64,000 nt of DNA from an archaeon (GTDB lineage: Archaea; Undinarchaeota; Undinarchaeia; Undinarchaeales; JBDRKL01): contig JBDRKL010000012.1 in assembly GCA_043814055.1 (NCBI GenBank), positions 89,170-153,169 on the forward strand, given 5' to 3'. The notes beneath the pieces are model-generated. The model was not told the DNA's origin. It searched no databases and was given only the letters and a program-made list of their open reading frames with translations. Below, in pieces: positions 12,398-36,946 of this stretch (positions within the stretch are counted from its first letter, which is position 1; every line of letters starts with the position of its first letter). The position numbers and the translations under genes were made by a program.

Positions 12398-12430
12398 TTT
12401 GATATTGGCACATACAGTACAAAGTGTTAT

Positions 12431-13182: not shown

Positions 13183-13288
13183 CTCCGCCTAGCCGCGGAG
13201 AAAGGCTGTCCCGCATCACACAACACACACTCGTGTGTGTGCATAAATCACCGCAATGCGGTGATTCATGTTTGTGATGCTGCGGGAC
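13183..13288. terminator. Nested long palindrome between the convergent tRNA-Pro and tmk genes, candidate bidirectional terminator or structured RNA
   Basis: CTCCGC..GCGGAG hairpin (13183-13200), then GTCCCGCATCACA...TGTGATGCTGCGGGAC (13208-13288) enclosing CACACACTCGTGTGTGTG and AATCACCGCAATGCGGTGATT. Confidence 0.5.
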
Positions 13289-13305
13289 TACTGGACAAGT
13301 ACATC

Positions 13306-18619: not shown

Positions 18620-19813
18620 ATGAACCAAAAAATAATATTGGCATACAGTGGTGGACTTGATACATCGTTCTGTGTGCCATACCTGAAAGAGAAGGGATAC
18701 GACGTAATAACCCTGACAGTTGATACTGGAGGGCTGAACAAGGATGAGCTTGAGTATATCGAGAGCCATTCAAAGGAGCTTGGGGCTTCAAAGCACTACT
18801 TTGTTGACGCGAAGGATGAGGTTTATGAGAAAATCATAACCAATGTGATAAAAGCGAACGGGCTTTACCAGGGAGTTTACCCCCTGATGTGCTCGGACAG
18901 GTTCCTTTTTGGGAAGTATGCCAAGGAAATCGCGGACAAGGAGGGCACGAATGTTATAGCGCACGGCTGTACAGGCACTGGGAATGACCAGTTTCGTATA
19001 GAGCTTCCTGTGCTTGCAATGTATCCTGAGATTGAGATAGTTGCGCCAGTGAAGGAATTGGGGAGCACGCGTGATTATGAAATAGAATATCTGGAAAAGA
19101 AAGGGTTTGAAGTTCCGAAAGAGGTCAAGAAGTACACTTATAATCAGAATGTGTTTGGAGTTACGATTTCAGGCTCTGAGATTGACGAGAACAAGGAGAT
19201 TCCTGAGAGCGCGTGGGTAATGTCTAAAGTCACGAAGACTGAGCCGGAGTATGTTGAAATTGAATTTGAGAAAGGAGTCCCGGTTGGATTAGATGGTAAA
19301 AATTTGCCTGGGATTGAGATACTCGGAAAGCTGAATGAAGTTGCTGGAGCGCACGGATATGGCCAAGGATACTATATTGAAGATGAAATCCTTGGAATAA
19401 AGGGACAGCAGGCGTTTGAGGCTCCGGGTTTGATGCTAATTATAGAAGCACACAAAACATTGGAGAAATTGACGTTGACCAAGGAGCAGTTGAGCATTAA
19501 GCACGGGCTTGAGTATACTTGGGCTGAGTACGCGTATTTGGGCAAGCTGTTTGACCCAATGATGAAGGATGTTCAGGCGTTTTTTGATTCAACGCAAGAG
19601 TCCGTGAATGGAAAGGTAAAGATGAAGCTGGAGCACAAATCAGCTTTCCTGTGCGAGGTGCACAGCCCGAACTCGTTGATTGACGAAGATGTGGCGTTGT
19701 ATGCACAGAAGGCAACTTGGACCGGAGGGGACGTGAATGCATTCATGAAATTCTATGGGATGCAAAGCACAACGTTCAATAAAAAAAATGAAAAAACAAA
19801 TCTGGAAAACTGA
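18620..19813 (+). CDS. argG: Argininosuccinate synthase
   Basis: ILAYSGGLDTS PP-loop, ~397 aa. Confidence 0.9.
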   Translation: MNQKIILAYSGGLDTSFCVPYLKEKGYDVITLTVDTGGLNKDELEYIESHSKELGASKHYFVDAKDEVYEKIITNVIKANGLYQGVYPLMCSDRFLFGKYAKEIADKEGTNVIAHGCTGTGNDQFRIELPVLAMYPEIEIVAPVKELGSTRDYEIEYLEKKGFEVPKEVKKYTYNQNVFGVTISGSEIDENKEIPESAWVMSKVTKTEPEYVEIEFEKGVPVGLDGKNLPGIEILGKLNEVAGAHGYGQGYYIEDEILGIKGQQAFEAPGLMLIIEAHKTLEKLTLTKEQLSIKHGLEYTWAEYAYLGKLFDPMMKDVQAFFDSTQESVNGKVKMKLEHKSAFLCEVHSPNSLIDEDVALYAQKATWTGGDVNAFMKFYGMQSTTFNKKNEKTNLEN

Positions 19814-20963
19814 AAAAGAGAATGAATTGAATCCAACTATTCTGGAGTATAATTCAGGAGAGAATATCCAGCTTGACCAGGCTTTGCTCAAATATGACAT
19901 CAAAGTGAACAAAGCGCATGCGAATATGCTTGAGAAAACTGGGTTGATTTCAGCTGAAGAAAACAAAAAGATTCAGGAGGCATTGAACAAGATTCCAGAG
20001 GATTTTAAACTGGATCCGGAACTTGAAGACGTTCATATGAATGTTGAGTCTGCGCTTGGAGAAATTGGAAAGAAACTGCACACTAGCAAGAGCAGAAACG
20101 ACCAGGTTATGGCTGACCTGCAACTCTATATGAAAGACCAGATAGGAGAAATTGCTGGAGGACTGCAGGAGCTTCAGAAAGTTTTGAAAGAGAAAGCAGA
20201 TGAGTACAAAGGAGCAGAAATGCCGGCTTACACGCACATGCAGCCAGCGGTTTCCACCACGTTTGATGAATGGATTGGAGCTTATGCCTGCCTGTTTGAG
20301 TCAGACGTTGAGTTTTTTAATACTGCAAAAAAGTCTCTTTTTTGCCCGCTTGGCGCGTGCGCTGTGGCCGGCACCAATCTTCCAATAGACAAGAAAATGA
20401 CTGCAAAGGAGCTTGGGTTTGAAAAAAGCTTTGAGAATCCAATTGCAGTGATAAGCTCGCGCGGGGAGGTTGAGACACACTGCTTGTTCGGGCTTTCAAT
20501 GGCAATGTTGCACTTGAATAAGCTGGCGAATGACCTTCAGCTTTATTCCACATTTGAGTATGGAATGATTGAGCTAGCGGATGAAGTTTGCACTTCCAGT
20601 TCCATAATGCCGCAGAAGAAGAATCCAGACGTATTGGAGATTTTGCATTCTAAAAGTGTAGAGATTCACAGTTTGTTGATGCAAAACCTTATGATACTTA
20701 ATTCATTGACTTCTGGGTTTCACATGGATATGCAGCAGACCAAGAAGAATGTGATGCAAGGATTTGAGATTGTCCTGAAAAGTATTGAAGTTATGAAAAT
20801 TGTAATTGCCGGACTAAAAGCAAACCCGGAGAAGATGAAAGAGTTGGTTGAGGCAAGTGGCTGCAATGCGATTAAGGAAGTTGAGCAGCTTGTTTTAGGT
20901 GGGATGCCGTTCCGTGATGCGTATAAGAAAGTGAGGCAAAACTATATAACCGCGAATAGGTAA
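19788..20963 (+). CDS. argH: Argininosuccinate lyase
   Basis: Fumarase/aspartase family with TSKSRNDQV and the GSSIMPQKKNPD signature. The start is uncertain (19755 or 19788) and overlaps the argG end. Confidence 0.85.
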   Translation: MKKQIWKTEKENELNPTILEYNSGENIQLDQALLKYDIKVNKAHANMLEKTGLISAEENKKIQEALNKIPEDFKLDPELEDVHMNVESALGEIGKKLHTSKSRNDQVMADLQLYMKDQIGEIAGGLQELQKVLKEKADEYKGAEMPAYTHMQPAVSTTFDEWIGAYACLFESDVEFFNTAKKSLFCPLGACAVAGTNLPIDKKMTAKELGFEKSFENPIAVISSRGEVETHCLFGLSMAMLHLNKLANDLQLYSTFEYGMIELADEVCTSSSIMPQKKNPDVLEILHSKSVEIHSLLMQNLMILNSLTSGFHMDMQQTKKNVMQGFEIVLKSIEVMKIVIAGLKANPEKMKELVEASGCNAIKEVEQLVLGGMPFRDAYKKVRQNYITANR

Positions 20964-20995
20964 ATTCAATACCTAATTGTAGGAGAGATTTAAGA

Positions 20996-22102
20996 ATGGC
21001 TGATAAGAGTCTAATTGTGTTCAGGGACGGCGCTGTGCTAGAGGGGAGAAGCTTTGGCGCGCGGAAAACTGTTGTCGGCGAGATAGTTTTCAATACTGCT
21101 ATGACAGGTTACCAGGAATCGCTGACTGACCCTTCCTACCACAGGCAGATTCTGAACCAGACCTACCCGATTGTTGGAAATTACGGAATTGATGAGGAAA
21201 GTTTTGAGGGCAGCAAGCTCTGGGCCTCCGGGTTCCTGGTCAGGGACTTGTGCGAGAAGCCGTCGCATTATAAATCCATAAAAACTTTGGATGAATTTTT
21301 AAAAGAGCAGGATGTTCCCGGGGTTTGCGGGATTGACACAAGGGCAGTCACTGTGAAGCTGAGGAATGCTGGCTCAATGCTTGGCGCGATTGTGCCTTAT
21401 GAGGGAAAAAAGCCTGAGCTGGGAAAAATCAGGGAAGAAATCAGCTCGTTTGACTATGCAGGAGCGGACCTGGTCAAGGATTACGCAGAGGCTGAGTTCA
21501 AGGACAAGGAGAAAATTATCCACGGCAAAGGGAACACGTACAAGGTTGTGATGATTGACTGCGGAGTCAAGCTCGGGATTGTGCGCGAGATGGTGAAGCG
21601 CGATATTGAGGTTATAAGGGTTCACCCTGTGACAAGCGCTGAGAAGATTCTTGCAATGAAGCCGGACTGCGTGCACATTTCAAACGGACCTGGGAATCCT
21701 GAGACAATACTTTACGCAATAGAAACTGCGAAGAAGCTTGTGGGAAAAGTTCCAATGCACGGGATTTGCGTTGGTCACGGCGTTATTGCCGCGGCGTGCG
21801 GAGGGAAAAATTTCAAGATGAAGTTCGGCCACCGCGGAGGGAACCACGGGGTTAAGGATTTGAAAACCGGGAAGGTTTTCATCACTTCGCAGAACCACGG
21901 CTTCTGCGTGGATGGGGATTCGCTGAAAGGCACTGGGCTTGAGGTTACTGAAGTTAACTGCAATGATGGGACTGTGGAAGGAATGGATCATACAAAGTAT
22001 CCGATTTTTTCAACGCAGTACCATCCTGAGGCGAACCCAGGACCTTACGACGCGCTTGGGAAGTTTGACAGGCTTGTTGAGATGATAAAGGAGAACCGAT
22101 GA
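20996..22102 (+). CDS. carA: Carbamoyl-phosphate synthase small (glutaminase) subunit
   Basis: GATase catalytic triad region GICVGHG plus a CPSase small-chain N-domain. Confidence 0.9.
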   Translation: MADKSLIVFRDGAVLEGRSFGARKTVVGEIVFNTAMTGYQESLTDPSYHRQILNQTYPIVGNYGIDEESFEGSKLWASGFLVRDLCEKPSHYKSIKTLDEFLKEQDVPGVCGIDTRAVTVKLRNAGSMLGAIVPYEGKKPELGKIREEISSFDYAGADLVKDYAEAEFKDKEKIIHGKGNTYKVVMIDCGVKLGIVREMVKRDIEVIRVHPVTSAEKILAMKPDCVHISNGPGNPETILYAIETAKKLVGKVPMHGICVGHGVIAAACGGKNFKMKFGHRGGNHGVKDLKTGKVFITSQNHGFCVDGDSLKGTGLEVTEVNCNDGTVEGMDHTKYPIFSTQYHPEANPGPYDALGKFDRLVEMIKENR

Positions 22103-25100
22103 AAAGAGATGTGAAAAAAGTGCTTGTGATTGGCTCTGGCCCGATTGTGATAGGCCAGGCTGCAGAGTTTGACTACTCAGGAAGCCAGGCGCTAAAGGCG
22201 ATGAAAGAGGAAGGCGTCAAAACCGTGCTTGTCAATTCAAATCCCGCTACTATTCAGACTGACAGGGACATGGCTGATGCAGTTTACATAGAACCGCTGA
22301 CCCCCGAGATTGTTGAGAAAGTGATTGAAAAGGAGAAACCGGACGGAATTTTGTCCGGGATGGGAGGGCAGACAGCGTTGAATATAATTTCTGAATTGGC
22401 TGAACGCGGAGTTCTTGAAAAGCACAATGTTCAAGTGCTTGGGACTCCGGTTGATACGATTGAAACCAGCGAAAACAGGGAGTTGTTCAAGCAGATGATG
22501 CTCAAGATTGGGGAGCCGGTTCCGAAGTCAAAGAGCGTGAACACAGTTCAAGAGGCGCTGGATTTTGCAGAGGAAATAGGATATCCGGTTGTTGTAAGGC
22601 CGGCTTACACACTTGGCGGCTCAGGCGGCGGCATTGCCCACGACTTCGTTGACCTAGAGAGGATTGCAGGCAATGGCATTTCGCTGAGCAGGATAGGCCA
22701 GGTTCTCATAGAGGAATACCTGAGCGGCTGGAAGGAGATAGAGTACGAGGTTATGCGCGATTCTGCTGACAACTGCATAACCATCTGCAATATGGAGAAC
22801 CTTGACCCGATGGGAATACACACAGGGGATAGCATTGTTGTTGCGCCGTCGCAGACGCTGAGCGATGATGATTACCACATGCTGCGCTCGGCGAGCCTGA
22901 AAATTATCCGCGCGCTGAAAGTGGAGGGCGGGTGCAACATACAGTTTGCCCTTGACCCAAAAAGCAGCGATTATAGAATCATAGAAGTCAACCCGAGAGT
23001 TTCAAGAAGCTCAGCGCTCGCGTCAAAAGCAACCGGATACCCAATAGCACTCATCTCCGCTAAGATAGCAATTGGCAGAACGCTTGGTGAGATACCAAAC
23101 GCAGTAACTAAAGACACGCCAGCCTCTTTTGAGCCGGCGCTGGATTATATTGTTGTTAAAATACCAAGATGGCCATTTGAGAAGTTCCCAATGGCTGACA
23201 GAACCCTTGGAACCGAGATGCGCAGCACTGGTGAGGTGATGGCAATAGGCAGGACGTTTGAGGAGGCGCTGGACAAGGCAGTGAGGAGCTTGGATATTGG
23301 GAAGAAATTGATTGATGGGACTGGGGAGATGGATAAGGGGCACTTGAGAGAATTTTTGACAGTCGCAACTCACAAGCGGCTGTTCCACATAGTTGACGCG
23401 ATTAAGAGCGGATTTTCAGACGAGGAGATTGTTGAGCTCACAAAGATAGATCCGTGGTTTATCTGGAAAGTACGGAGCATTGTGGAGAGTGGAGATGGGA
23501 AAAAGAAAAAGTGCTACAAGATGGTGGACACTTGCGCGGCAGAGTTTGAGGCAAAGACGCCGTATTACTATTCGACTGAAGGCGATGTAAGTGAGAGCGT
23601 TGCATCAAACAAGAAGAAAATAATTATACTTGGCTCCGGGCCAATACGGATAGGACAGGGTATTGAGTTTGACTACTGCACTGTTCACGCGGTGTGGGCG
23701 CTTAGGGAGATGGGCATAGAGACAATTGTAATTAACAACAACCCAGAGACAGTTTCAACTGATTATGACACTTCGGATAAATTGTATTTTGAGCCGCTTG
23801 ATTTTGAGCACGTGATGAATGTTGTGAACGTGGAGAAACCAACAGGCATTATAACCCAGTTCGGCGGGCAGACAGCTGTAAATCTTTCTTTGCCTTTAGA
23901 AAAAGCAGGTGTTAAAGTCTTTGGAACCTCACCAAAAAGTATGGACTTGGCTGAGGACAGGACTAAATTCACAAAGGTTTTGAAAAAGCTCAAGATACCG
24001 CAGGCAAACTATGGTGTTGCACACAGCTTTGAAGATGCAAAGAAGGTTGTTGCCAGTATTGGCTATCCGGTTTTGGTCAGGCCGTCTTATGTTCTTGGTG
24101 GCAGGGCAATGGAGATAGTGCATAGCGAAGATGAACTTGTGAATTACATGAAAGAGGCCAGAAAAGTTTCTGAAAAGCGACCCATACTCATTGACCAATT
24201 TTTGCAGAATGCGATAGAAGTTGATGTTGATGCGGTGTGTGATGGAAGTGAAGTGCTTATTGGCGGCATCATGGAGCACATAGAGCAGGCAGGAGTGCAC
24301 TCTGGGGACAGCTCGTGCGTTGTGCCACCGCAGAGTTTGAGCAACGAGATTGTGAAGAAAATCAGGGATTACACTAAAAAGCTTGCGCTAGGTTTGAATG
24401 TTGTTGGGTTAATGAATGTGCAGTATGCGGTGAAAGATGAGGTGGTTTATGTTCTTGAGGCGAACCCGCGGAGCTCAAGGACAGTGCCGTTCATAAGCAA
24501 GGCAACAGGGATTCCGCTCGCGAAGATTGCGGCGCAGGTCATAGCCGGAAAGAAATTAAAAGAGTTAAAAGTGAAGAACAAAATTCTGAATCATGTTTCA
24601 GTTAAGTCCGTTGTTTTCCCGTTCAACAAGCTGCCTGGCTCTGACACCAAGCTCGGGCCTGAGATGAAGAGCACTGGAGAAAGCATGGGCATAGCTGACA
24701 GCTTCCCGGAGGCATTTTACAAGGCACAGCTCGGCGCAGGCGTTGAGATTCCATCAGATGGGTGTGTTTTTTTCGCTGTGAACCACGAGGACAAAGAGCA
24801 TATCACTGAGATAGCGCGCGGCTTTGAGGGGCTGGGGTTTGAGATACTTGCAGTTGGCCGAACTGCAAAAATTCTCCGCGTGGACGGCGTTTCAGTTAGA
24901 AAAGTCTTTAAGGCCAGCGAGGGAAACCTAAACATTGTTGACCTTATCAAGCGCGGAGAAGTGGACCTTGTGATTAACACGCCGACAAAAGGAGGATCAG
25001 CGAATAGGGATGGCTATAAGATACGGACGGCGTGCATACGCTCAAATGTTCCGTGCATAACAACGCTTGCAGGGGCAAGGGCTGCGCTCAAGGCGATTGA

Positions 25101-25152
25101 AAATGCAGGTAGGGGCGGGATGCAGGTTAAGCCGCTTGGGGATTACTACTGA
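22099..25152 (+). CDS. carB: Carbamoyl-phosphate synthase large subunit
   Basis: Duplicated ATP-grasp halves, oligomerisation and MGS-like domains, 1017 aa. ATGA-coupled to carA. Confidence 0.9.
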   Translation: MKRDVKKVLVIGSGPIVIGQAAEFDYSGSQALKAMKEEGVKTVLVNSNPATIQTDRDMADAVYIEPLTPEIVEKVIEKEKPDGILSGMGGQTALNIISELAERGVLEKHNVQVLGTPVDTIETSENRELFKQMMLKIGEPVPKSKSVNTVQEALDFAEEIGYPVVVRPAYTLGGSGGGIAHDFVDLERIAGNGISLSRIGQVLIEEYLSGWKEIEYEVMRDSADNCITICNMENLDPMGIHTGDSIVVAPSQTLSDDDYHMLRSASLKIIRALKVEGGCNIQFALDPKSSDYRIIEVNPRVSRSSALASKATGYPIALISAKIAIGRTLGEIPNAVTKDTPASFEPALDYIVVKIPRWPFEKFPMADRTLGTEMRSTGEVMAIGRTFEEALDKAVRSLDIGKKLIDGTGEMDKGHLREFLTVATHKRLFHIVDAIKSGFSDEEIVELTKIDPWFIWKVRSIVESGDGKKKKCYKMVDTCAAEFEAKTPYYYSTEGDVSESVASNKKKIIILGSGPIRIGQGIEFDYCTVHAVWALREMGIETIVINNNPETVSTDYDTSDKLYFEPLDFEHVMNVVNVEKPTGIITQFGGQTAVNLSLPLEKAGVKVFGTSPKSMDLAEDRTKFTKVLKKLKIPQANYGVAHSFEDAKKVVASIGYPVLVRPSYVLGGRAMEIVHSEDELVNYMKEARKVSEKRPILIDQFLQNAIEVDVDAVCDGSEVLIGGIMEHIEQAGVHSGDSSCVVPPQSLSNEIVKKIRDYTKKLALGLNVVGLMNVQYAVKDEVVYVLEANPRSSRTVPFISKATGIPLAKIAAQVIAGKKLKELKVKNKILNHVSVKSVVFPFNKLPGSDTKLGPEMKSTGESMGIADSFPEAFYKAQLGAGVEIPSDGCVFFAVNHEDKEHITEIARGFEGLGFEILAVGRTAKILRVDGVSVRKVFKASEGNLNIVDLIKRGEVDLVINTPTKGGSANRDGYKIRTACIRSNVPCITTLAGARAALKAIENAGRGGMQVKPLGDYY

Positions 25153-25643
25153 GGAAGCCTTGGCCGACGGCCGGTTTCTTTAACAAGCCGGTTAAATTTG
25201 TCCTGCAAATCTGTCATAGCGTATTCAATCAGCTCATCCAATTTGGAGATGTCTTCTTCTGTGACTTTCAAAAAAAGAGTGAATGAATGCTGGACGCCTT
25301 TTAATTGATTCAAGTTGTTTTGGGTGGTTTCAAAATCTCTGCGAAGTGAGGTGATTGTGAAGGGGGATGAATGGTTTTCCTTTAAAGAGCGTGCGATGCC
25401 TGCAATTCGGAATTCCTCGTGCTGTATTGAATCGTCTATTTGCGCCAGTATTCCTTTGAACTCTTCTTGCCGTGCGAGCAGAGCCTTTTTAAACGTATTC
25501 AAACCAGGCAGGATGGAATTGAAGTCCTTGTAGTCCTGATCAGAAATGCGGGCGCGTGACTTGGTAAAAAATTTGTCTGCCCACGCCCTGAGACCCTCTT
25601 CAAGTTCCTCAGTGAGGTGATTGTACCCCTTTTGATCACCCAT
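25146..25643 (-). CDS. Hypothetical coiled-coil protein (165 aa)
   Basis: No recognisable motif. Overlaps the carB stop by 7 nt on the opposite strand. Confidence 0.4.
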   Translation of the reverse strand: MGDQKGYNHLTEELEEGLRAWADKFFTKSRARISDQDYKDFNSILPGLNTFKKALLARQEEFKGILAQIDDSIQHEEFRIAGIARSLKENHSSPFTITSLRRDFETTQNNLNQLKGVQHSFTLFLKVTEEDISKLDELIEYAMTDLQDKFNRLVKETGRRPRLPQ

Positions 25644-25846
25644 ATGATAAAATAGTTGTTTTCGCTGTATAAAAGCTTTTATGGAAAGGTATAAATCACA
25701 TTTTAAACATGATATTTTAGATATGGGCGCAAAAACTTCAGTTCGGAGAAGCAGGCGGCTTTAGCCGCGCCCATCGGTATCTTTTTATTCACCCAAAGAT
25801 TATTAGTCTTCAGCCAATGGGCTGTTGACGGTGTAAGGCAAAAAAA

Positions 25847-26033
25847 GGATCCGTAGCCTAGTCTGGATAAGGCGACAGCCTTCTAACAACCGCAAAATCG
25901 GTTGACGCTTTGGGTCGCATTCCGCTTCGCGGAAGCGACCCGGCTCGCGCGTTCGCACGCGCTCGCTCGGTCAATTCGAGCAAGTTGGTTGGAAGCCAGC
26001 TGTAAATCAGGGGTTCAAATCCCCTCGGATCCA
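25847..26033 (+). tRNA. tRNA-Arg (anticodon TCT) with a 112-nt intron at canonical position 37/38
   Basis: Acceptor GGATCCG/CGGATCC, D-arm GCCT-AGTCTGGATA-AGGC, anticodon stem ACAGC (25875-79) with loop CTTCTA|A, 3' stem GCTGT at 25999-26003, T-arm AGGGG-TTCAAAT-CCCCT. Intron ~25886-25997. Confidence 0.8.
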
Positions 26034-26047
26034 CTCAAACCTAAAAT

Positions 26048-26297
26048 GGGCCAGTAGCCTAGTCTGGATACGAGGCGGAAGCAAGCTCCCGCTTGTTTCC
26101 AGCTCCGCTGGAAAAGGCGTCAGGCTTCGGACCAGCGGCAAATTCATTTGCTCTGGAAGGATACCTGAAGACCGAGGGTTCAAAACTCCGCCGCTGCGGA
26201 GGATAGCAGGGGGCTTGGTTAAAACCGAGCATTCCGCCAAAAGCGGAAGCCCCCTATAAAATGCAGCGCCGGACTGAAAATCCCTTCTGGCCCACCA
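26048..26297 (+). tRNA. tRNA-Arg (anticodon TCG) with three apparent introns (D-arm, anticodon 37/38, T-loop) and encoded CCA
   Basis: Acceptor GGGCCAG/CTGGCCC, D-stem GCCT, D-loop AGTCTGGATA, then a 44-nt insert (26071-26114) before AGGC-G. Anticodon stem TCAGG (26120-24) with loop CTTCGG, a ~32-nt insert, then A-CCTGA (26163-68). T-stem GAGGG (26174-78) pairs CCCTT (26282-86) across a ~90-nt insert. Confidence 0.6.
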
Positions 26298-26333
26298 TAA
26301 TCATTAAAACCAAGGAAAACCTACGGGAAAACA

Positions 26334-28496
26334 ATGGCAAAGAAAGAAAAGTCAAAAAAAGCGGTAAAGAAGAAGGTAATGCCGAAAACTCTAAAGAAGA
26401 AGGCAGCCATTAAGAAGAAACTAGTAGTGAAGAAGAAAGCTTTGATTAAGAAAAAAATTGTAGTGAAGAAGAAACCAGTGTCTAAGAAGAAAGTGACACC
26501 AAAGAAGAAGGTTTCAAAACCAAAGAAAGCCCTTGCAAAGAAAAAGCTGGTGGTGAAAAAGAAAGCTGCAAAACCGAAAGCCAAAAAGGCAGCGATTAAG
26601 AAGAAACCGGTAAAAGCAAAGAAAACTGTGAAGAAGACAACAGTTAAGAAGAAGGTTTCAATAAAAAAGAAGGCTGTAAAAGCCAAGAAAAAAGCAGCAA
26701 AACCTAAGAAGCCGCCGGAACCAAAAGAAGAGCAAGAACCTGAGAAACCAAATGAACCTACCTATGACCCGTGGCAGGAACTAAAGAATCAGGCACAAGC
26801 AGCGATTGAAGAAGCTGTGAAGACCGCGAAGATTAAGGTTCCATCAGAGGTAAATTTTGCAACTGCGATTGAAGAGCCGCCAAGCGCCAAGATGGGAGAT
26901 GTGGCTTGTAGCATTGCGTTTTCATTGGGAAGAGCATCTAAGAAGAACCCAAGACAGCTTGCGGAACTGCTCATATCAAAAGTAAAGAAGCCGCCAATTT
27001 TCAAGAAGGTTGCGCTCGCAGGAGCGTACATCAATTTCTTTCTGGATCACGATAAGTTCGCAAAGCACATTCTTGCAAAGGTTGTTGACGACGATTATGG
27101 CCGGGGAGGGAAGAAGGGCGACAAGGTAATGGCAGAGTTCTGCCAGGTTAACACGCACAAGGCGTTTCATATTGGGCATATTAGGGGAACCATACTTGGC
27201 GAGACTATTTCACGCATTTTGGAGTACAGCGGGTATGAAGTTGTGAGAGCAAATTACCAAGGGGACATTGGCTCGCACGTTGCAAAGTGGATGTGGTATT
27301 ATAACAAGTTCAAGAGTGGAGAGAGCCCGCATGGCAAGGGGGAAACCTGGCTTGCTAATATTTACCGGGCTGCCACGCAGGAGCTAAGGGAGCACCCTGA
27401 ATACGAGAAAGAGACCAGCGAGATTCTGCAGAAGCTTGAAGCCGGTGAAGATGAAAAACTGATGCAGGCCTGGCGGGAAACTCGGCAGTGGTCGCTTGAT
27501 GAGTATGAGAAAATTTACAAAGAGCTTGACGTGCGATTTGACCGATATTTCTTTGAGAGCGAGATGGGAAACTCTGGCAAGGAAATCGTGGACGAACTGC
27601 TCAAGAAAAAGATTGCAAAGATGAGCGAGGGCGCTATTGTGATAAATTTGGAGAAGTTTGGGCTCGGAACGTATCTTTTGCTTAAGAGCGACGGGACCGC
27701 GCTTTATTCCACCAAGGACCTGGCGCTTGCAAAGGCTAAGTTTGAAGAGTTTGGAATTGATATTTCACTTTATGTTGTTGGATCAGAGCAGCGGCTTTAT
27801 TTCCAGCAGCTGTTCAAGACGCTTGAGCTGATGGGCTTCAAGCGCGCGAAGAAGTGCCACCATCTTGCTTTTGACCTGATAAGCCTGAAGGAAGGCAAGA
27901 TGTCCTCAAGGGAAGGTACTGCCATTTTATATTCTGAGCTGAGAGACGGGATGTTCAAGAGGGCGCTTGAAGAAGTTATGGAAAGAAATCCGGAGATGGA
28001 CCCGCACGAACAGAAGATCATTGCGAATAAAGTTGCGTACGGCGCGATGAAGTTTGACATACTTAACATAAACAACAACAAGACAATATTCTTTGACTGG
28101 GAAAAAGCACTTGAATTTGAGGGCGAGACCGCGCCTTATGTGCAGTACGCCGGAGTTCGATGCAAGAGAATACTTGAGAAGGCTGGAAAAGTGCCTGAGA
28201 CTGGAAAAGTTGACTTCGGAAAGCTGAAGCTTGCAGCAGAGCACGAGCTTGTCAAGATGCTCGCGAGATTCCCTGGGGTTATTGCCACGGCTGCGAAGGA
28301 GTACAAACCGCACTTCATTGCGAATTATGTATATGGGCTAGCTGACAAGTTTAGCACTTTCTATACCGAGGCGCCTATAATGGACGCGGGAGATAAGGCA
28401 ACAAAAGATGCTCGGCTTATGCTGCTAAGCGCAACATATAAAACCCTTGAGAAAGCCCTATATCTGCTCGGAATAGAAATTCCTGAGCGTATGTAA
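26334..28496 (+). CDS. argS: Arginyl-tRNA synthetase with a ~145-aa polylysine N-terminal extension
   Basis: Class I HIGH motif (AFHIGHIRG), KMSK-like GKMSSREG, and a DALR anticodon-binding C-terminus. The N-terminus is KKK(L/I)VVKKK repeats. The antisense ORF 26321..26686 is an artefact of the repeats. Confidence 0.9.
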   Translation: MAKKEKSKKAVKKKVMPKTLKKKAAIKKKLVVKKKALIKKKIVVKKKPVSKKKVTPKKKVSKPKKALAKKKLVVKKKAAKPKAKKAAIKKKPVKAKKTVKKTTVKKKVSIKKKAVKAKKKAAKPKKPPEPKEEQEPEKPNEPTYDPWQELKNQAQAAIEEAVKTAKIKVPSEVNFATAIEEPPSAKMGDVACSIAFSLGRASKKNPRQLAELLISKVKKPPIFKKVALAGAYINFFLDHDKFAKHILAKVVDDDYGRGGKKGDKVMAEFCQVNTHKAFHIGHIRGTILGETISRILEYSGYEVVRANYQGDIGSHVAKWMWYYNKFKSGESPHGKGETWLANIYRAATQELREHPEYEKETSEILQKLEAGEDEKLMQAWRETRQWSLDEYEKIYKELDVRFDRYFFESEMGNSGKEIVDELLKKKIAKMSEGAIVINLEKFGLGTYLLLKSDGTALYSTKDLALAKAKFEEFGIDISLYVVGSEQRLYFQQLFKTLELMGFKRAKKCHHLAFDLISLKEGKMSSREGTAILYSELRDGMFKRALEEVMERNPEMDPHEQKIIANKVAYGAMKFDILNINNNKTIFFDWEKALEFEGETAPYVQYAGVRCKRILEKAGKVPETGKVDFGKLKLAAEHELVKMLARFPGVIATAAKEYKPHFIANYVYGLADKFSTFYTEAPIMDAGDKATKDARLMLLSATYKTLEKALYLLGIEIPERM

Positions 28497-28511
28497 TAGA
28501 GACAAAAGTGT

Positions 28512-28694
28512 GCCAGGGTAGCCTAGTTTGGATAAGGCGACAGCCTCCTAACAGCGGCAAATTCCGCTGGCAAATTGGGCCGCATTCGGCTTTCAGCCGA
28601 AGCGACCCGGCCCGCTGCGCGGGCAAAAGCCAATAGCGGAAAGCTGATGGAAGCAAGCTGTAAGTCGAGGGTTCAAATCCCTCCTCTGGTGCCA
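28512..28694 (+). tRNA. tRNA-Arg (anticodon CCT) with a 105-nt intron at 37/38 and encoded CCA
   Basis: Acceptor GCCAGGG/CTCTGGT (two G-U pairs), D-arm GCCT-AGTTTGGATA-AGGC, anticodon stem ACAGC with loop CTCCTA|A, 3' stem GCTGT (28657-61), T-arm GAGGG-TTCAAAT-CCCTC. Intron 28551-28655. Confidence 0.75.
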
Positions 28695-28699
28695 TAATA

Positions 28700-29182
28700 A
28701 TGACCTTAGTAGACGAATGCAAAATAAGGGACGCAGCGCCTGAAGATGTTGATGCAATCATAGAACTGTACAAGGAAGCCCTAGTCCCGATATGGGACAG
28801 GATACACAGGCCCTATGACCTTGTTAGGCTAAGGAGAACGCTTGAGAAACGGTTTGAAAAAGGGCATAGCGGTCTGGTGGTTGTTAGGGAGAACAAGATT
28901 ATTGGGTGCGTTCTGACCGCACTGCGAACCGGGAAGATATCCAATAAAAAAGTAATGAAAATATCGTCTCTTCTGGTCAAGCCGGAATTTTTTGGGAAAG
29001 GCTTAGGCCAGGAACTCATTAGAATCGTAGAAGACACAGCAAGGCAAAATGGCGTGGAGCGGATAAGACTGAAGTGCGCCTATAAGAACACTGCACTGGA
29101 GTTCTACAACAAAATGGGTTTTCAGGAAGACCAGATAAGCTTTATCAAGGAGCTAAAAACAAAAAAAGCCCCCGTAGTCTAG
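28700..29182 (+). CDS. GNAT family N-acetyltransferase (160 aa)
   Basis: Acetyl-CoA binding motif region (Q/R)xxGxG/A: FGKGLGQELIRIV. Its last ~15 nt overlap the 5' end of tRNA-Arg(GCG). Confidence 0.7.
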   Translation: MTLVDECKIRDAAPEDVDAIIELYKEALVPIWDRIHRPYDLVRLRRTLEKRFEKGHSGLVVVRENKIIGCVLTALRTGKISNKKVMKISSLLVKPEFFGKGLGQELIRIVEDTARQNGVERIRLKCAYKNTALEFYNKMGFQEDQISFIKELKTKKAPVV

Positions 29183-29241
29183 TTTGGATAGGATGTGAGC
29201 TTGCGGAGCTCGAGGCTTGGGTTCAAATCCCGACGGGGGCA
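29168..29241 (+). tRNA. tRNA-Arg (anticodon GCG), intron-less
   Basis: Acceptor GCCCCCG/CGGGGGC, D-arm GTCT-AGTTTGGATA-GGAT, anticodon arm TGAGC-TTGCGGA-GCTCG, T-arm TTGGG-TTCAAAT-CCCGA, discriminator A. Confidence 0.8.
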
Positions 29242-30717
29242 CTAATGTTTTCTTTTACTAAAACTCTTTTTGAACTCGTGGCGCCAGAGCTTGTCGCGGA
29301 ATGACTTTCGCTTTGAGTTGAAAAAGAAGACTGCAGCTATTATGAGGAGTATTACAACAGCTAAAAGCAGTTTTCCGCCTAAGGAGTCCAGCAACCTGAC
29401 CGGTTTTTCCTCAATTACAAATGCTGCAGATTCGCTCTCCGCAAGCCGCTGTTCATCCACAAGAATCGTGACCTTGAGCAAGTGGTCGCCAGGCGCTTCT
29501 GGGATGTCCCAGACGCTCAACACATCCTTTTTCTCGCCCCTGAGAAGCGTGAATGAATTAAAACCAATTTTATAAGAGTCCATATAGAAGTTTACCGTGC
29601 CCTGAATGTCAATGTTTCCTGTGTTCTCAAGCGCGGCAACCAAATCTACTTGGTCTCCAATGTACGCGGAGCTGGCGTTGAGCTTGAGGCCGGCAAGTAA
29701 TTTCTTTTCTTCCGCGACTGTGAAAGTCTTTGCGCACTTGCCCTTGTTGCCATACTCATCAGTTGCCTCTGCCTTTGCAGTGTACTGGCCGGGAGGGTCC
29801 TGCTTGCTTATCGGGGCTTCAAAAGAGAAGTGGCCGTTGCTATCTGAGATTGCGTCATATGTTGTTGAGATGTCCTCTGAGGTTGTAAACCAGGATTTTG
29901 TGCTTATTTTATCAAGTGGCTCGTCGTGCACATTGTCTATGGTTCCAAAGAGGACCACAACACCGCCTGGGTTTATGTTTGTCTTCTGGAGAGAACACGC
30001 CATCTTGAGCTCATCCGTGACAATGATGTCATCAATGATGGAGGTTCTTGCGTTCCCGTAGTTGTCAAGAAAGTTTGCTTCTAGTGAATATGTTCCAGGA
30101 GGGTCTGACGCTTTGAATGTGTAAGCGTAGGATATGTAGCCGTTCTTAAGGTCTGCGGAATCTGTAACAATGCCACCCAGACCGGACTCCTCAAGGCTTA
30201 TGGACGCTTTGCCCTCTACCGGGAACCCGTGGGCGTTAAGGACTATACTGCTGAACTCAAGGGTTTCGCCTCGGTTGAAGATGCGAGCGTTTATGCTACG
30301 CTCAACAAAGAGGTTCTCGGTTATGGTGAATTTGCCAGAGTAAAAATCTGCATAGGAATCGTAGCCGGTCTTTATCTTTACCTTGATTCTCCAGTCGTCC
30401 GCGGTGTTTATGGTGCTGGTTACGTCCCAGAGGAGTGTGCCCTTGGTGATTAGAGAGAATGAAACTGGGGTGTCTGCGAGGAAGGAGTATATTTTAGTGG
30501 TTATTGGAATTTCCTGGGAAGTAGAGTCGCTCACAGCAAGGAACTGGACCTCAGAGCCTGGAATGTTCTCGCCGAGCTCAATTGTTCCAGTAATCACGAT
30601 TTGGTCGCCGTAGTTGAACGTGCTGTTCGCCCGCGGGTTTGAAACTGTCATTCCAGCGTGAGCCCCGGATAGCACGATTAGAAATAACACTAGGGCGCAT
30701 AATGCAAGCTTTTTCAT
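29242..30717 (-). CDS. Secreted / cell-surface protein with N-terminal signal peptide and C-terminal TM anchor (491 aa)
   Basis: MKKLALCALVLFLIVLSGAHA signal and a C-terminal LLLAVVILLIIAAVFFF anchor followed by a basic tail. Beta-rich repeats suggest Ig/CARDB-like domains. Confidence 0.5.
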   Translation of the reverse strand: MKKLALCALVLFLIVLSGAHAGMTVSNPRANSTFNYGDQIVITGTIELGENIPGSEVQFLAVSDSTSQEIPITTKIYSFLADTPVSFSLITKGTLLWDVTSTINTADDWRIKVKIKTGYDSYADFYSGKFTITENLFVERSINARIFNRGETLEFSSIVLNAHGFPVEGKASISLEESGLGGIVTDSADLKNGYISYAYTFKASDPPGTYSLEANFLDNYGNARTSIIDDIIVTDELKMACSLQKTNINPGGVVVLFGTIDNVHDEPLDKISTKSWFTTSEDISTTYDAISDSNGHFSFEAPISKQDPPGQYTAKAEATDEYGNKGKCAKTFTVAEEKKLLAGLKLNASSAYIGDQVDLVAALENTGNIDIQGTVNFYMDSYKIGFNSFTLLRGEKKDVLSVWDIPEAPGDHLLKVTILVDEQRLAESESAAFVIEEKPVRLLDSLGGKLLLAVVILLIIAAVFFFNSKRKSFRDKLWRHEFKKSFSKRKH

Positions 30718-30757
30718 ATTCTCCCAAGGATGGGTATGAATTTTGAGTATTTAAGGG

Positions 30758-31657
30758 TTACTTTGTGATTTGAGTTCCTGCTTTTCCGCCAAGAGCTTTC
30801 TCAATATCGCTGAGGTGGCAGATTATTGCACGCTCGCCGCCGGATTCAATAAAGTTTATTGCGGCTTGAATTTTCGGGCCCATTGAGCCCGCTGGGAAAG
30901 AATCCATGTGTTTTTTTGCTTCTTTAACCGTGAGTTTGTCAAGGAGCTTTTGGTTTGGCTTGCCGAAGTTGAGGTATGCGCCTTTCGTGTCCGTGACTAT
31001 TAACAAAATATCTGCTCCGATTTCCTCGCCGAGCTTCGCGCTTGCAAGGTCCTTGTCTATGACTGCTTCTATGCCATGGTAGTTGTGCTCTTCCCTTTTT
31101 ATCACAGGAATTCCGCCCCCGCCGCAGGTTACAACCAGGAAGCCGGCCTTGAGGAGCTCCTTGATTTTGTAAGAGCCGACAATCCTTATTGGTTTTGGAG
31201 ATGCCACGACTTTGCGCCAGCCCTTTGCGGTTTTCACAAAGCCTGGTTTTTTGTTTTTGTAAGCAGGGCCGATTGGCTTTGTCGGGTTCTTGAACGCTGG
31301 GTCGTTCGCGTCAACCTGAACGTAAGTTGAAAGGGTGGAGAGGAGCGGGTGCATAATTCCGATTTTCATTAATTCGTTATCAAGTGTTTTCTCAATCATG
31401 TAACCGATTTGACCCTGAGTCATAGCGACCAGGACTTCAAGGGGCATTTCAGGGACTTCAGAAGTTGCCTGCTGCTGGAGAAGAAGGTTGCCGACCTGGG
31501 GTCCGTTGCCGTGCGTGATTACAAGATTGTATTTGCCGTATAATTTCGCGACCTTGCTCAGCGGGATTTCAAGGTTGTTGAACTGCTCGCTCACGTTCCC
31601 TTCCTGACCTTTCTGGATGAGGGCGTTGCCTCCGAGCGCGATAATTAGAGTTTTCAT
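30758..31657 (-). CDS. arcC: Carbamate kinase
   Basis: Amino-acid kinase family with LIIALGGNAL at the N-terminus, ~300 aa, typical carbamate kinase length and motifs. Confidence 0.75.
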   Translation of the reverse strand: MKTLIIALGGNALIQKGQEGNVSEQFNNLEIPLSKVAKLYGKYNLVITHGNGPQVGNLLLQQQATSEVPEMPLEVLVAMTQGQIGYMIEKTLDNELMKIGIMHPLLSTLSTYVQVDANDPAFKNPTKPIGPAYKNKKPGFVKTAKGWRKVVASPKPIRIVGSYKIKELLKAGFLVVTCGGGGIPVIKREEHNYHGIEAVIDKDLASAKLGEEIGADILLIVTDTKGAYLNFGKPNQKLLDKLTVKEAKKHMDSFPAGSMGPKIQAAINFIESGGERAIICHLSDIEKALGGKAGTQITK

Positions 31658-31745
31658 TAATTTTGTATTATTTTGAGGGGTAATATGCTTTTTTGTTTGT
31701 GGAAAAACAAAATGTTTATGAAGGAATGAATTTAAATGAAATAAA

Positions 31746-32486
31746 ATGGCAGTAACAAGCTATAGGAGAGACGGCGCTTTGCTTTTGGACAAGCTTTTCC
31801 CAGGGTTCGGGTTGGATGTTAAGATTTATGAAATCTGGAGGGATTTTGACTTAGATGATTACAAGATGGGGAAAGACGATCGTCTTATGGTGAGAACATT
31901 CGGCAGTAATTCTCCAAATGTTAGAAACCCAGATATAATTGTTAAGAATACTGCGGATGCGCTTAAGTTTATGAAAAGGCAGGCTAAGAAAAATCGGTTT
32001 GGATACATAGGTCAAAGGACCATGAATGAAAATGATATAAAATATTCTGTGAGTGGCTCGCTTGATTATAGGAGAATTCCTTCATTAGCATTCACAATAC
32101 GAGAAGTGGACAAAGGATTCATATTGAATAATATGGAAACAGATGAGCGCGGAACAACTACACGAGAGGCAAAGGTGCTTGTTGAGTTCAAATATGATTA
32201 TTTCTCCGCAACTCCGAAAGCTCCTAGCTTGTCACCACCTAATTTTCCGAAGAGCGAGCTTAGAAAACTGAAGAAAACTGTACTTCAGGTAGTGAAGTTC
32301 GCAAAAATAGTTGATGATAATTACACTAAAAACTATGCGAAGAAGGACCTAATGCCAAATTTCCTTTTGTATGTTTCAAAGAAGGGCGACATTTTGCCAG
32401 TTGATTTAAAGCAGAAATACAATTTGAAGAGTACACAAAGAAAAATCTGGATGGGGATTAAAGTTTCCCCATCAAAAACAGCATAA
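31746..32486 (+). CDS. Hypothetical protein (246 aa), cysteine-free, low GC, sitting between arcC and argF
   Basis: No recognisable domain. Its base composition (~38% GC) differs from the flanking ~50% GC genes. Confidence 0.4.
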   Translation: MAVTSYRRDGALLLDKLFPGFGLDVKIYEIWRDFDLDDYKMGKDDRLMVRTFGSNSPNVRNPDIIVKNTADALKFMKRQAKKNRFGYIGQRTMNENDIKYSVSGSLDYRRIPSLAFTIREVDKGFILNNMETDERGTTTREAKVLVEFKYDYFSATPKAPSLSPPNFPKSELRKLKKTVLQVVKFAKIVDDNYTKNYAKKDLMPNFLLYVSKKGDILPVDLKQKYNLKSTQRKIWMGIKVSPSKTA

Positions 32487-33390
32487 TCGCGTTCTGGGCG
32501 TGCATTCTGTTCTCCGCCTGGTCGTACACGATGCTCTGCGGTCCGTCAATCACGTCAGCTGTTTGCTCAAGCCCACGGGCTGCTGGGAGGCAGTTCATGA
32601 AAATCGCGTCCGGCTTTGCCTTGCTCATGAAGTCCGCGTTAATTTGGTACGGCATGAACTTTGCCTTGCGCGCTTCCATCTGGTCTTCTGGAATGTGGTA
32701 GGACATCCAGGAGTCAGTGTAGACCACATCCGCGTCCTTTGCTGCCTCAGCTGCGTCGTGTGTTACGATTACTTTGCCTCCAGAGGTTTTGCAGAGCTCT
32801 TTGCACTCGTCAAGAACTTCCTGCTCAGGGGAATATTCAGCACCCTCTGGGCAGGCTACTGCGATTTCAAAGCCCATCACAGCTGCTGCGCGCATCAGGT
32901 CGTAGGTCACGTTGTTGTGGCAGTCGCCGGAGTATGCCATCTTGATTCCTTCCAGACTTCCTTTCTTTTCAACTATTGCTTGGAGGTCGCAGATGATTTG
33001 GCACGGGTGCGCGAAGTCGTCAAGCGCGTTTATTACTGGCACGTTGGATTCTTCAGAGAATTCTTTAAGGTCTTCCTTCTTGTTCACGCGGGCCATAATT
33101 ATGTCAACATATCTTGAGGCGCACTTCGCAGTGTCCTTGATGTTCTCTTTCTTGCCGAGCGGGGAGTCCTTGATGCTGTAGAATATTGCGTGGCCACCGA
33201 GGCGAGTCATACCGGTTTCAAAGGAGACGCGGGTGCGCAGAGAGGGTTTCTCAAAGAGCATTAGAAGGGTCTTACTCTTCATTGTTGTGTTGTAATTCTC
33301 AGGGTTCTTTTTTATGTCAATTGCTTTTTCAATAATAGTTGCAATCTCGTCCTTTGTAAAATCAGATACTTTTAGCAAATGTCTTGTCAT
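32458..33390 (-). CDS. argF: Ornithine carbamoyltransferase
   Basis: STRTR carbamoyl-phosphate motif, HPCQ and an SMG-like ornithine-binding region. The antisense ORFs 32500-33181 were discarded. Confidence 0.9.
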   Translation of the reverse strand: MTRHLLKVSDFTKDEIATIIEKAIDIKKNPENYNTTMKSKTLLMLFEKPSLRTRVSFETGMTRLGGHAIFYSIKDSPLGKKENIKDTAKCASRYVDIIMARVNKKEDLKEFSEESNVPVINALDDFAHPCQIICDLQAIVEKKGSLEGIKMAYSGDCHNNVTYDLMRAAAVMGFEIAVACPEGAEYSPEQEVLDECKELCKTSGGKVIVTHDAAEAAKDADVVYTDSWMSYHIPEDQMEARKAKFMPYQINADFMSKAKPDAIFMNCLPAARGLEQTADVIDGPQSIVYDQAENRMHAQNAIMLFLMGKL

Positions 33391-35803: not shown

Positions 35804-36574
35804 ATGAAAAGAATACTGCTTCTTGGAATTGTATTGCTTGTTATTTTGACCAGTTCGGCATATGCACAAATGCCCGGCGATGACTGCGTGGTTGGAAAAG
35901 TTGATGCCTCAGTGGCTTATGACGGGACAGCGCACGTCAAGATGATTTACAGGTTCACCTGCAGCGGCACGATTGACTATACAGGGCAGGTTACCAAGAT
36001 GCTCATAAGCCTTCCCTTGAATGATGTGAAAAATGTAGAGGTAGAGGATGGGCTTGGGTCAATGAAAGTTCTTGAGGGACCGGAGTATGTCAAAGTTGAG
36101 AAGGATTCTGACGAATCCAAAATTGGAATCATATTTAGAAAAGGGCTTTTGATTAATAGGGAGACCAATGATTATGACATTGCGATTGAGTTTGACACAG
36201 ACTCGCTTGTCACAGAAGGGGAGAGTGTGAATAGCATTAGCTCCGGGGTGCTTGTTGCGAATCCCAAAGTCACGATAATAACCAGCGGAATGACTGAAAC
36301 CGTACTGCCAGTGAACGCTTTTGATTTCGCGCTCAAGCTGGACGAAGAGGCGAGCATACAAAGCGTGAAGCCGAGCGTTTGTGCAATAGAGGGCGGTGAC
36401 GTTGAATGCGCAGACTTGAGTAAACAGGAGATGGAGCAGCTTGAAATAAGCTGGACTGGCGGAAGCACAGGCTGGGGCGGGAAGATTCAGGGATTCACAA
36501 AGAAATACCTGCCCGCTGCTGGGGATTTCTTAGGCAGCTTGTTTGGTAATATAAAGGATATGCTGGACAAGTAA
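35804..36574 (+). CDS. Secreted hypothetical protein with signal peptide (256 aa)
   Basis: MKRILLLGIVLLVILTSSAYA signal. TAATG-coupled to the downstream AN1 zinc-finger gene. Confidence 0.45.
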   Translation: MKRILLLGIVLLVILTSSAYAQMPGDDCVVGKVDASVAYDGTAHVKMIYRFTCSGTIDYTGQVTKMLISLPLNDVKNVEVEDGLGSMKVLEGPEYVKVEKDSDESKIGIIFRKGLLINRETNDYDIAIEFDTDSLVTEGESVNSISSGVLVANPKVTIITSGMTETVLPVNAFDFALKLDEEASIQSVKPSVCAIEGGDVECADLSKQEMEQLEISWTGGSTGWGGKIQGFTKKYLPAAGDFLGSLFGNIKDMLDK

Positions 36575-36855
36575 TGAGTATAGAAGCGGTTATTTTTGCT
36601 GTAATCGGGCTGATAGTTGCGATTATTGCGTATTTTACTTATTTTAGGGAGCTAGGAATTCCGAAGGTAAGGATGCCGAAAAAGAAATCTGTTGCTGAGA
36701 TTACGCCGCCGAATAAAAAGAAGCTGAGCCCGGTGAGCGGGAAGTGCGCAAAGTGCAGGAAGAAAGTTACAATGCCGTTCAGGTGCAAGCATTGCGAGGG
36801 GCTTTATTGCGATGATCACAGGCTGCCTGAGAATCATGATTGTAAGGAGTTATAG
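36574..36855 (+). CDS. Membrane-anchored AN1-type zinc-finger protein (93 aa)
   Basis: N-terminal TM helix, then CAKCRKKV...FRCKHCEGLYCDDHRLPENHDC, a C6H2 AN1 pattern. Confidence 0.6.
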   Translation: MSIEAVIFAVIGLIVAIIAYFTYFRELGIPKVRMPKKKSVAEITPPNKKKLSPVSGKCAKCRKKVTMPFRCKHCEGLYCDDHRLPENHDCKEL

Positions 36856-36946
36856 CTAAATCGCAATCTATATATAGCACTTTATTCACCCTTATGGAGT
36901 AGTAACAAGGAGTTGGGAGACTCTAACACGTAGTGAGGACAATGTA

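Follow-up and report, generated by a model that had tools for sequence, protein, structure and literature searches.

Intron-bearing tRNA-Arg genes around argS

The window analysed here, a 64-kb stretch of contig JBDRKL010000012.1, belongs to one metagenome-assembled genome of an uncultured DPANN-type archaeon close to Naiadarchaeales/Undinarchaeota, and it is the whole evidence base for the element that concerns us, a small hairpin repeat found both in tRNA introns and in intergenic DNA. Its argS gene (26334-28496), whose ArgRS product has best protein matches labelled Naiadarchaeum or Undinarchaeales at 51-72% identity, is flanked by four tRNA-Arg genes: UCU (25847-26034) and UCG (26048-26297) on one side, CCU (28512-28694) and the intronless GCG gene (29168-29242) on the other, the first three on the plus strand. 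The UCU and CCU genes each carry a single intron at position 37/38, read from the sequence as 112 nt (25886-25997) and 105 nt (28551-28655) respectively, both in plus orientation; the Rfam tRNA model covers both genes (51.9 bits over 25847-26033; 45.9 bits over 28512-28691) with a single large insertion 3' of the anticodon in each, and the spliced sequences are recognised by ARAGORN as tRNA-Arg(tct) and tRNA-Arg(cct). The UCG gene has three plus-strand introns, in the D-loop (26071-26113), at 37/38 (26131-26162) and in the T-loop at 59/60 (26185-26280), on account of which it is overlooked by Rfam and ARAGORN; once they are removed in silico, ARAGORN identifies it as tRNA-Arg(tcg).

The motif that the archaeal splicing endonuclease recognises, the bulge-helix-bulge (BHB; PMC4090602), takes its perfect canonical form in the UCU precursor: a 4-bp helix of C32-U33-U34-C35 (CUUC, 25880-25883) with GAAG (25992-25995), 3-nt bulges UA|A and CC|A beside it, and an inner intron helix pairing CAACC (25887-25891) with GGUUG (25987-25991). 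The motif of the CCU precursor is relaxed, with the same geometry, a CUCC/GAAG helix containing one C.A mismatch, and one G.A mismatch in the inner helix; such a C.A mismatch is to be expected of an intron that evolved next to CUUC and only afterwards reached CCU by copying. The short 37/38 intron of UCG likewise ends in GGAAGG beside a CUUC loop, and its T-loop intron forms UUCA/UGAA with bulges AA|A and AA|U. The terminal GGAAGC shared by the two long introns, which had been listed as a shared segment in a previous inspection of the letters (the sequence-only reading), is explained by the BHB itself, its GAAG forming the 4-bp helix with C32-C35. Excision in silico gives canonical tRNAs in ARAGORN for UCU, CCU and UCG alike, and the long introns of these genes are, on sequence grounds, ordinary archaeal BHB introns, predicted to be spliced by the endonuclease.

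The introns of the three genes share with described archaeal introns (Marck and Grosjean 2003; PMC4090602) the positions 37/38, D-loop and 59/60, the 4-bp helix with two 3-nt bulges, the restoration of a cloverleaf on excision, and the occurrence of multi-intron genes, here tRNA-Arg(UCG). They differ in that the three longest, at 96-112 nt, lie in the upper tail of the length distribution and in that their bulk is a repeat also present outside introns. The length had been called unusual; about 100 nt is indeed long, but still within the published range of 11-129 nt, in which medians are 12-25 nt (PMC4090602).

The UCU and CCU introns had been thought homologous, and alignment bears this out. 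Globally, 77 of 102 aligned positions are identical, or 67% of the 115 columns, with z = 8.4 against dinucleotide shuffles, and local alignment gives z = 12-13. Identity reaches about 80% over the first 60 nt; the 3' halves are far more diverged. The strings said to be shared are all there: TTGGG(T/C)CGCATTC at 25910 and 28575, and GAAGCGACCCGGC at 25932 and 28599.

A two-hairpin module inside and outside introns

The conserved 5' part of the long introns is a GC-rich module of about 60-70 nt, composed of a 6-bp hairpin (HpA), a 7-8-nt linker, and a second hairpin (HpB) made of a GC-rich outer stem, a bulge and an inner UUCSGC/GCSGAA stem. The copy in the UCU intron (25886-25947, plus strand) has HpA at 25887-25892/25899-25904, the outer stem of HpB at 25912-25918/25935-25941, a bulged A at 25919 and the inner stem at 25920-25925/25929-25934; that in the CCU intron (28551-28614, plus strand) has a C.A mismatch in its outer stem, which reads as G.U on the opposite strand. 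The nested hairpin foreseen by the sequence-only reading is present in the minimum-free-energy fold of both precursors, and the double substitution CCGC/GCGG to CGGC/GCCG that it described as compensatory is real. HpA, which it had not listed, adds two further compensated pairs, being CAACCG-CAAAAT-CGGTTG in UCU and CAGCGG-CAAATT-CCGCTG in CCU. In all, 3 of 19 pairs differ on both sides and remain paired between the two introns, and one change, U-A to C.A in the outer stem, is uncompensated. Within the introns, HpA and the inner BHB helix compete for one 5' arm.

A shuffle test on these two sequences had no statistical power (64 of 500 shuffles, 1 in 8, did as well), so we used a substitution simulation and a count over three copies in its place. 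Under 14 independent random substitutions, the probability that 18 or more of the 19 pairs survive with 3 or more compensated doubles among them is about 2e-4. When the third copy of the same subfamily, described below, is included, both partners change in 6 of the 19 pairs and pairing holds in 96% of cells, a result reached by none of 500 shuffles, in an alignment that was itself fitted to the model.

Further copies were sought with two covariance models, R1 built from HpA and HpB of the two long introns and R2 from two copies outside introns only; both were short-calibrated, and all E-values from them are rough. In the window the family has no fewer than six full copies, besides a partial one. 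Three neighbouring tRNA-Arg genes each have a full copy at the very 5' end of a BHB intron, oriented as the tRNA is; the other three full copies lie in intergenic spacers in the opposite, minus orientation; the partial copy is on the plus strand. A descriptor of the inner hairpin, run over the same 64 kb, returned exactly six full copies with flanking outer stems and three unrelated matches. The copies fall into two subfamilies by the arms of HpA, CARCSG/CSGYTG in subfamily I and CTCCGC/GCGGAG in subfamily II.

Building a covariance model from the introns had been proposed as the check on a conserved intron structure. Run as R1, it did retrieve a third full copy, at 43923-43990 (45.7 bits, E about 1e-8, full length; E 0.0017 with R2), but outside any intron and on the opposite strand, in an 80-nt spacer (43916-43995) after a tRNA gene at 43819-43915. 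This copy bridges the two subfamilies: its HpA is of subfamily I, and its HpB loop is of subfamily II type, matching that of a copy at 3953-4018 at 21 of 22 nt with one 1-nt gap. The latter lies on the minus strand between an MCM gene (1918-3954) and a presenilin-type peptidase gene (4034-4846), both named from Pfam, and is 85% identical to another minus-strand copy of subfamily II at 44021-44082, in a second spacer, the outer stem of which is partly decayed; these two are the seed of R2.

The sequence-only reading had placed the same hairpin in the T-loop intron of tRNA-Arg(UCG). The string is present, as ATTCCGC-CAAAA-GCGGAAGC at 26231-26250, but the pairwise match to the long introns is marginal (p about 0.07) and R1 gives E 0.16-0.5. 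It is only through R2, built from non-intron copies, that the relationship becomes credible: about the first 80 nt of the intron (26185-26260, plus strand) are matched at full length with 17.1 bits, E 0.022, and assigned to subfamily II. Here HpA is CTCCGC-CGCT-GCGGAG, HpB is GGGGGC/GCCCCC around TTCCGC-CAAAA-GCGGAA, and an extra 16-nt hairpin replaces the bulge. The partial copy (13183-13207, plus strand; R2 E 0.0015) consists of HpA alone, CTCCGC-CTAGCC-GCGGAG, and abuts the CCA end of tRNA-Pro(UGG) (13064-13182).

All six full copies retain both hairpins with nearly all pairs Watson-Crick, despite differing arm sequences. The module folds about equally on both strands, and in 5 of 6 copies the strand antisense to tRNA-Arg folds as well or better, because C.A mismatches there turn into G.U; the copy in the CCU intron, for example, has -35.0 kcal/mol antisense and -31.4 sense. 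There are thus several non-coding copies in both orientations, three of the full ones intronic and three intergenic, as is found for a dispersed palindrome.

This distribution bears on the view that conserved structure implies function, as a splicing guide or a processed small RNA. On that account the hairpin is kept because the intron, or its excised or circularised form, acts; possible roles are protein binding, guidance of pre-tRNA-Arg processing or modification, and a coupling of tRNA-Arg maturation to the arginine gene cluster around it. The compensated pairs and strongly negative folding z-scores would fit, as would the presence of the module in three tRNA-Arg genes clustered with argS, always at the 5' end of the intron. 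There are precedents: archaeal tRNA-Trp introns encode a box C/D guide RNA (PMC4090602), and archaeal tRNA introns become circularised (PMC3326292). The tRNA-Trp intron resembles the long introns here in lying at 37/38, in being long (about 65-105 nt) and in being structured; the window introns differ from it in having no conserved C/D or C'/D' boxes (CUGAUGG occurs in the CCU intron and not in UCU), and Rfam finds in them no box C/D match at E <= 10, no H/ACA match and no other RNA family. Against an acting intron, the module also lies in intergenic DNA in the opposite orientation, its antisense strand folds equally well or better, and the orthologous genes of all relatives examined are without it. 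Moreover, the opening 13 nt of the CCU intron (CAGCGGCAAATTC) are matched in full in the 37/38 intron of UCG (13 of 13 nt, p about 0.002) but fold differently there, so that sharing reflects descent and not structure. A functional intron RNA is, in our judgement, quite improbable. One candidate structural signal was examined and dropped: a three-way covariation linking the 5' arm of HpA, its local partner and a distal partner in the intron fails in CCU, where the inner helix has the G.A mismatch.

Searches outside the window, the loci of the relatives included, recovered no copy of the module. The pattern GCATTCSGC N3-7 GCSGAAGCGACC, scanned against 185,579 species genomes (the source genome not among them), gave 34 single bacterial matches and no archaeal one, which we take as chance. 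A metagenome scan for the outer stem as TTGGGYCGCATTC N10-20 GAAGCGRCCCGG gave no match; metagenome loci chosen by their ArgRS proved to be relatives at 44% identity or less, save a 31-residue fragment at 77%, and none carried the module. Of two scans of viral contigs one gave 14 chance matches without outer stems and the second none, and BLAST against phages and plasmids found no match.

One structure in the window stands near the family without joining it. At 54316-54385, between genes for a geranylgeranyl reductase and a class II aminoacyl-tRNA synthetase, lies a GC-rich three-way junction with outer stem CTTCGGACGC/GCGTCCGAAG and folding z of -6.5; its CAGCGCAAATTCGC recalls HpA, and R1 matches it weakly (E 0.03-0.12). 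A 109-nt hairpin-rich intron (63805-63913) interrupts an initiator-like tRNA-Met(CAU) with A1:U72 (63766-63950); it starts with ACAACC as the UCU intron does and was set aside as a family member, having no significant overall similarity.

The tRNA-Pro(UGG) gene bordering the partial copy, on the plus strand, has a 42-nt T-loop intron (13124-13165) and was overlooked by standard scans. It sits in a stretch of about 900 nt (12397-13306) containing just three short mechanical open reading frames (ORFs) of 75-88 aa, and after it come about 120 nt of stacked hairpins, with GTCCCGCATCACA ... TGTGATGCTGCGGGAC around two hairpins, for which Rfam gave no family match in 13064-13300. In three other stretches of 370-670 nt, at 5852-6456, 13866-14535 and 36574-36947, a scan for ORFs of at least 110 aa selected none; such gaps are unusual in a small genome, although 13866-14535 does hold shorter mechanical ORFs. 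With two of the tRNA genes in this window, UCG and tRNA-Pro(UGG), missed by standard tools, the tRNA complements of such genomes are probably under-called.

Intron turnover in relatives and repeats of a tRNA end

Relatives were represented by the contigs encoding the closest ArgRS proteins: L001 at 72% identity, L064 and L065 at 58%, and L062/L063 at 55%; the nearest available is thus already distant. As far as the contigs reach, they keep the order carAB - tRNA-Arg(UCU) - tRNA-Arg(UCG) - argS - tRNA-Arg(CCU) (- GCG). In the window this order is part of an arginine 'supercluster' (19755-33390) of argH, carA, carB, tRNA-Arg(UCU), tRNA-Arg(UCG), argS and tRNA-Arg(CCU), followed by genes for a GNAT acetyltransferase, tRNA-Arg(GCG), carbamate kinase and ornithine carbamoyltransferase; the arrangement carAB - tRNA-Arg - argS - tRNA-Arg is also seen in L062, L064 and L065. 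The ArgRS itself has an N-terminal extension of about 135 residues (26334-26740), lysine-rich with KKK repeats and histone H1-like, and its homologues P0002, P0006 and P0011 are likewise 85-100 residues above the usual length of about 575-580 aa.

The introns are not kept as the gene order is. In L062/L063 and L064 the UCU and CCU genes are intronless; in L065 CCU is intronless and UCU is interrupted in the D-loop and in the T-loop but not at 37/38; in L001 the sole intron of UCU is in the D-loop, UCG is intronless, and CCU has three short introns, of which that at 37/38 is 42 nt long and without the module. At 37/38, then, none of four related genomes has the module in its orthologous tRNA-Arg genes. 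Since the orthologous genes of relatives lack them, the long introns are probably recent and lineage-specific, and intron content appears from these comparisons to turn over quickly in the clade.

The anticodon stems of UCU and CCU are identical in the window (ACAGC/GCTGT) and different from each other in every relative, and the acceptor and T stems of the two genes remain gene-specific. It suggests that anticodon stem and intron were copied jointly between UCU and CCU, and it is through such copying that the two introns would be alike. Significantly similar introns stand in different tRNA-Arg genes whose orthologous sites in relatives are intronless, the picture presented by transposed intron families. 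Among 120 pairwise comparisons of tRNA-Arg introns of the clade, 5 reached p <= 0.005, some of them across insertion positions and genomes. The D-loop intron of UCG in the window resembles the 37/38 intron of CCU in L001; the 3' part of the UCU intron (25953-25987) matches the UCG T-loop intron of L064 (9834-9873, Naiadarchaeum) at 29 identities in 37 columns (p about 2e-4, uncorrected); and the 3' part of the CCU intron resembles the T-loop intron of GCG in L001. The match between UCU and L064 hints that the long introns may be mosaics.

Observations of this kind would also suit a narrower explanation, that the module was born in a single tRNA-Arg intron and has passed solely from tRNA gene to tRNA gene, through intron transposition or gene conversion; the intergenic copies would then be what is left, in decayed form, of tRNA gene pieces carrying introns. 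Of the seven copies, five do lie within a tRNA gene or immediately next to one, and those in the two spacers are interleaved with exact repeats of a tRNA 3' end. UCU and CCU have the same anticodon stem, introns resemble one another across positions and genomes as just described (UCG D-loop with L001 CCU; UCU 3' part with L064 UCG T-loop, p = 2e-4), and like introns in different tRNA genes are known from Thermoproteales (PMC4090602, PMC4033280). What speaks against it is the copy at 3953-4018, between the MCM and peptidase genes without a tRNA remnant; the spacer copies, moreover, are inverted relative to the adjoining tRNA, and no exon-like flanks were found in the orientation required. Two apparent remnants were rejected on inspection. 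GGGCTACC at 3933, upstream of 3953-4018 and like a tRNA 3' end, falls within the Pfam match to the archaeal MCM winged-helix domain, which runs to the last profile position, and another chance copy of it occurs in coding DNA at 43653; a tRNA-Arg-like 5' exon beside 43923-43990 (GTAGCC...GGAT...GGCGA, minus strand) is the reverse complement of the T-arm and acceptor end of the tRNA. We regard an origin and spread confined to tRNA genes as rather unlikely.

The tRNA 3'-end repeats are found around the copies at 43923-43990 and 44021-44082. In plus-strand order, the tRNA (43819-43915) is followed by spacer 1 (43916-43995, 80 nt), a 19-nt repeat (43996-44014), spacer 2 (44015-44086, 72 nt), a 10-nt repeat (44087-44096) and an HD-domain gene. 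The 3' end of the tRNA is thereby present in three direct copies: 43897-43915 recurs at 43996-44014 (19 of 19 nt), and GGGGCTACCA again at 44087-44096 (10 of 10 nt). On the minus strand of 43819-44096 each repeat unit reads as 19 nt or 10 nt antisense to the tRNA end, followed by two hairpins. The tRNA is called Pro(UGG) by ARAGORN and scores 44 bits with Rfam; A1 is its first base and its extra arm, of 20 nt, is odd, and its Pro(UGG) identity is doubtful, given the tRNA-Pro(UGG) already present at 13064.

Attachment sites leave behind inserted DNA flanked by direct repeats of a tRNA 3' end, which raises the alternative that the hairpin repeat is the att-flanking arm of plasmids or viruses integrating at tRNA genes; introns would then be gained when a tRNA segment borne by the element, with its insert, recombined into the chromosomal gene, as in the model of Sugahara et al. 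(2012). The exact 19-nt and 10-nt repeats around diverged spacers would fit successive integrations, a published model does tie element integration to intron gain (PMC3293823), and an ORF at 41608-42036 (minus strand), about 1.8 kb upstream of the repeated-3'-end tRNA, matches the Pfam 'putative phage metallopeptidase' family (PF18894, E 4e-21). L065 might offer a parallel, in an element of about 100 nt found in a tRNA-Arg T-loop intron and directly after another tRNA-Arg gene. The 'islands' in the window are just 72-80 nt, however; beside the 3'-end repeats there is neither an integrase nor an element body, the neighbours being a D-aminoacyl-tRNA deacylase, an ORF with no Pfam match and an HD/YjeF protein, and no integrase was found among the neighbouring ORFs tested. 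The intron copies, besides, have no duplicated exon segments, and phage, plasmid and viral-contig collections gave no match. That the repeats are footprints of integrative elements is, we think, unlikely.

The L065 locus (GCA_964401205.1; 4479-4880, 8376-8591) merits description in its own right. Two insertions interrupt its tRNA-Arg(UCU): a D-loop intron, and in the T-loop a stretch of at least 140 nt for which there are two candidate 3' exons. The start of the T-loop insertion (CAGCTTTTTGCGCACGAGGCAA...) recurs directly 3' of tRNA-Arg(GCG), which itself has a 40-nt intron at 37/38. From its sequence this appears to be a second, different tRNA-linked repeat.

Origin of the long introns

On balance we lean, modestly, towards the reading that these are ordinary BHB introns, that their recent gain or expansion was the work of a dispersed palindromic repeat, and that they were copied between neighbouring tRNA-Arg genes. 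The bulk of each long intron would be a copy of the repeat together with other GC-rich hairpins, the intron ends supplying the BHB, and the likeness of UCU and CCU would come from copying of intron plus anticodon stem across 2.6 kb, by gene conversion or intron transposition. The relaxed CCU motif suggests UCU as the donor, and we infer that the repeat has been mobile. As to why the hairpins were kept, they may be recognised by the machinery of propagation, or a self-folding insert may spare the folding of the pre-tRNA and formation of the BHB. The sequence-only reading had named recent duplication as an alternative to structural constraint, and that alternative holds in part: the similarity is accounted for by copying, yet pairing as such was kept, as the compensated changes show. 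Among its three suggestions for a role, a homing-element remnant comes nearest in spirit; a function specific to introns is not supported.

Several points weigh against the reading we favour. Compensated changes are equally expected of a functional RNA. The BHB conformation of the UCU precursor is predicted to be 9 kcal/mol less stable than the free fold (-82.4 constrained, -91.2 kcal/mol unconstrained). The link between subfamilies I and II rests mainly on the bridging copy at 43923-43990 and on moderate, roughly calibrated E-values of 0.002-0.02. With five of the seven copies in or beside tRNA genes, a function linked to tRNA could be at work in place of neutral spread. Signs of a mover are also missing where we looked: there is no transposase or integrase among 20 neighbouring ORFs scanned, and comparison of flanks found neither terminal inverted repeats nor target-site duplications, nor consistent termini, though subfamily II copies end in CTATC/TATA. 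The repeat may have spread as a non-autonomous mobile element, by copying limited to tRNA genes, or by way of integrative elements whose footprints it would be.

Bacterial REP and REPIN sequences and miniature inverted-repeat elements, which are small imperfect palindromes rich in GC, occur scattered through non-coding DNA in either orientation and bear compensated hairpins. The repeat in the window is like them in being palindromic, dispersed and compensated; it differs in that no associated transposase, terminal repeats or target duplications were found, and its association with tRNA genes and introns is atypical of REPs. Nearer in habitat are the transposed introns of Thermoproteales (Fujishima et al. 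2010, via PMC4090602, PMC4033280), which are very much alike across genes and positions and recently gained relative to sister lineages, and whose 'transposition' was inferred from like introns in different genes (PMC4090602, PMC4033280). Our case differs in its DPANN-type host, in introns several times longer, and in sequence that also lies in intergenic DNA. Such copies, in both orientations, have to our knowledge not been reported for the Thermoproteales families. Gain of introns by mobile elements has been proposed from one locus of Caldiarchaeum subterraneum (PMC3293823), which shares with the window the direct repeats of a tRNA end beside an insert, repeats between tRNA loci and fast turnover; the window differs in having no recombinase gene or element body, its inserts being hairpin units of 60-100 nt.

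We know of no donor sequence for archaeal tRNA introns that has been pinned down. Side by side in one genome we find a hairpin unit of about 65 nt in three introns and in intergenic DNA; also visible are intronless orthologous sites in relatives and an anticodon stem apparently co-converted with its intron. It is possible, and we put this forward tentatively, that the small repeat is an active source of intron sequence, inserting into or creating BHB introns and also colonising tRNA flanks and intergenic DNA. If that is true, it would provide a concrete, sequence-level donor for the debated 'late' gain of archaeal tRNA introns; and should the repeat be borne out across the genome, the lineage would offer intron gain for study while it is under way.

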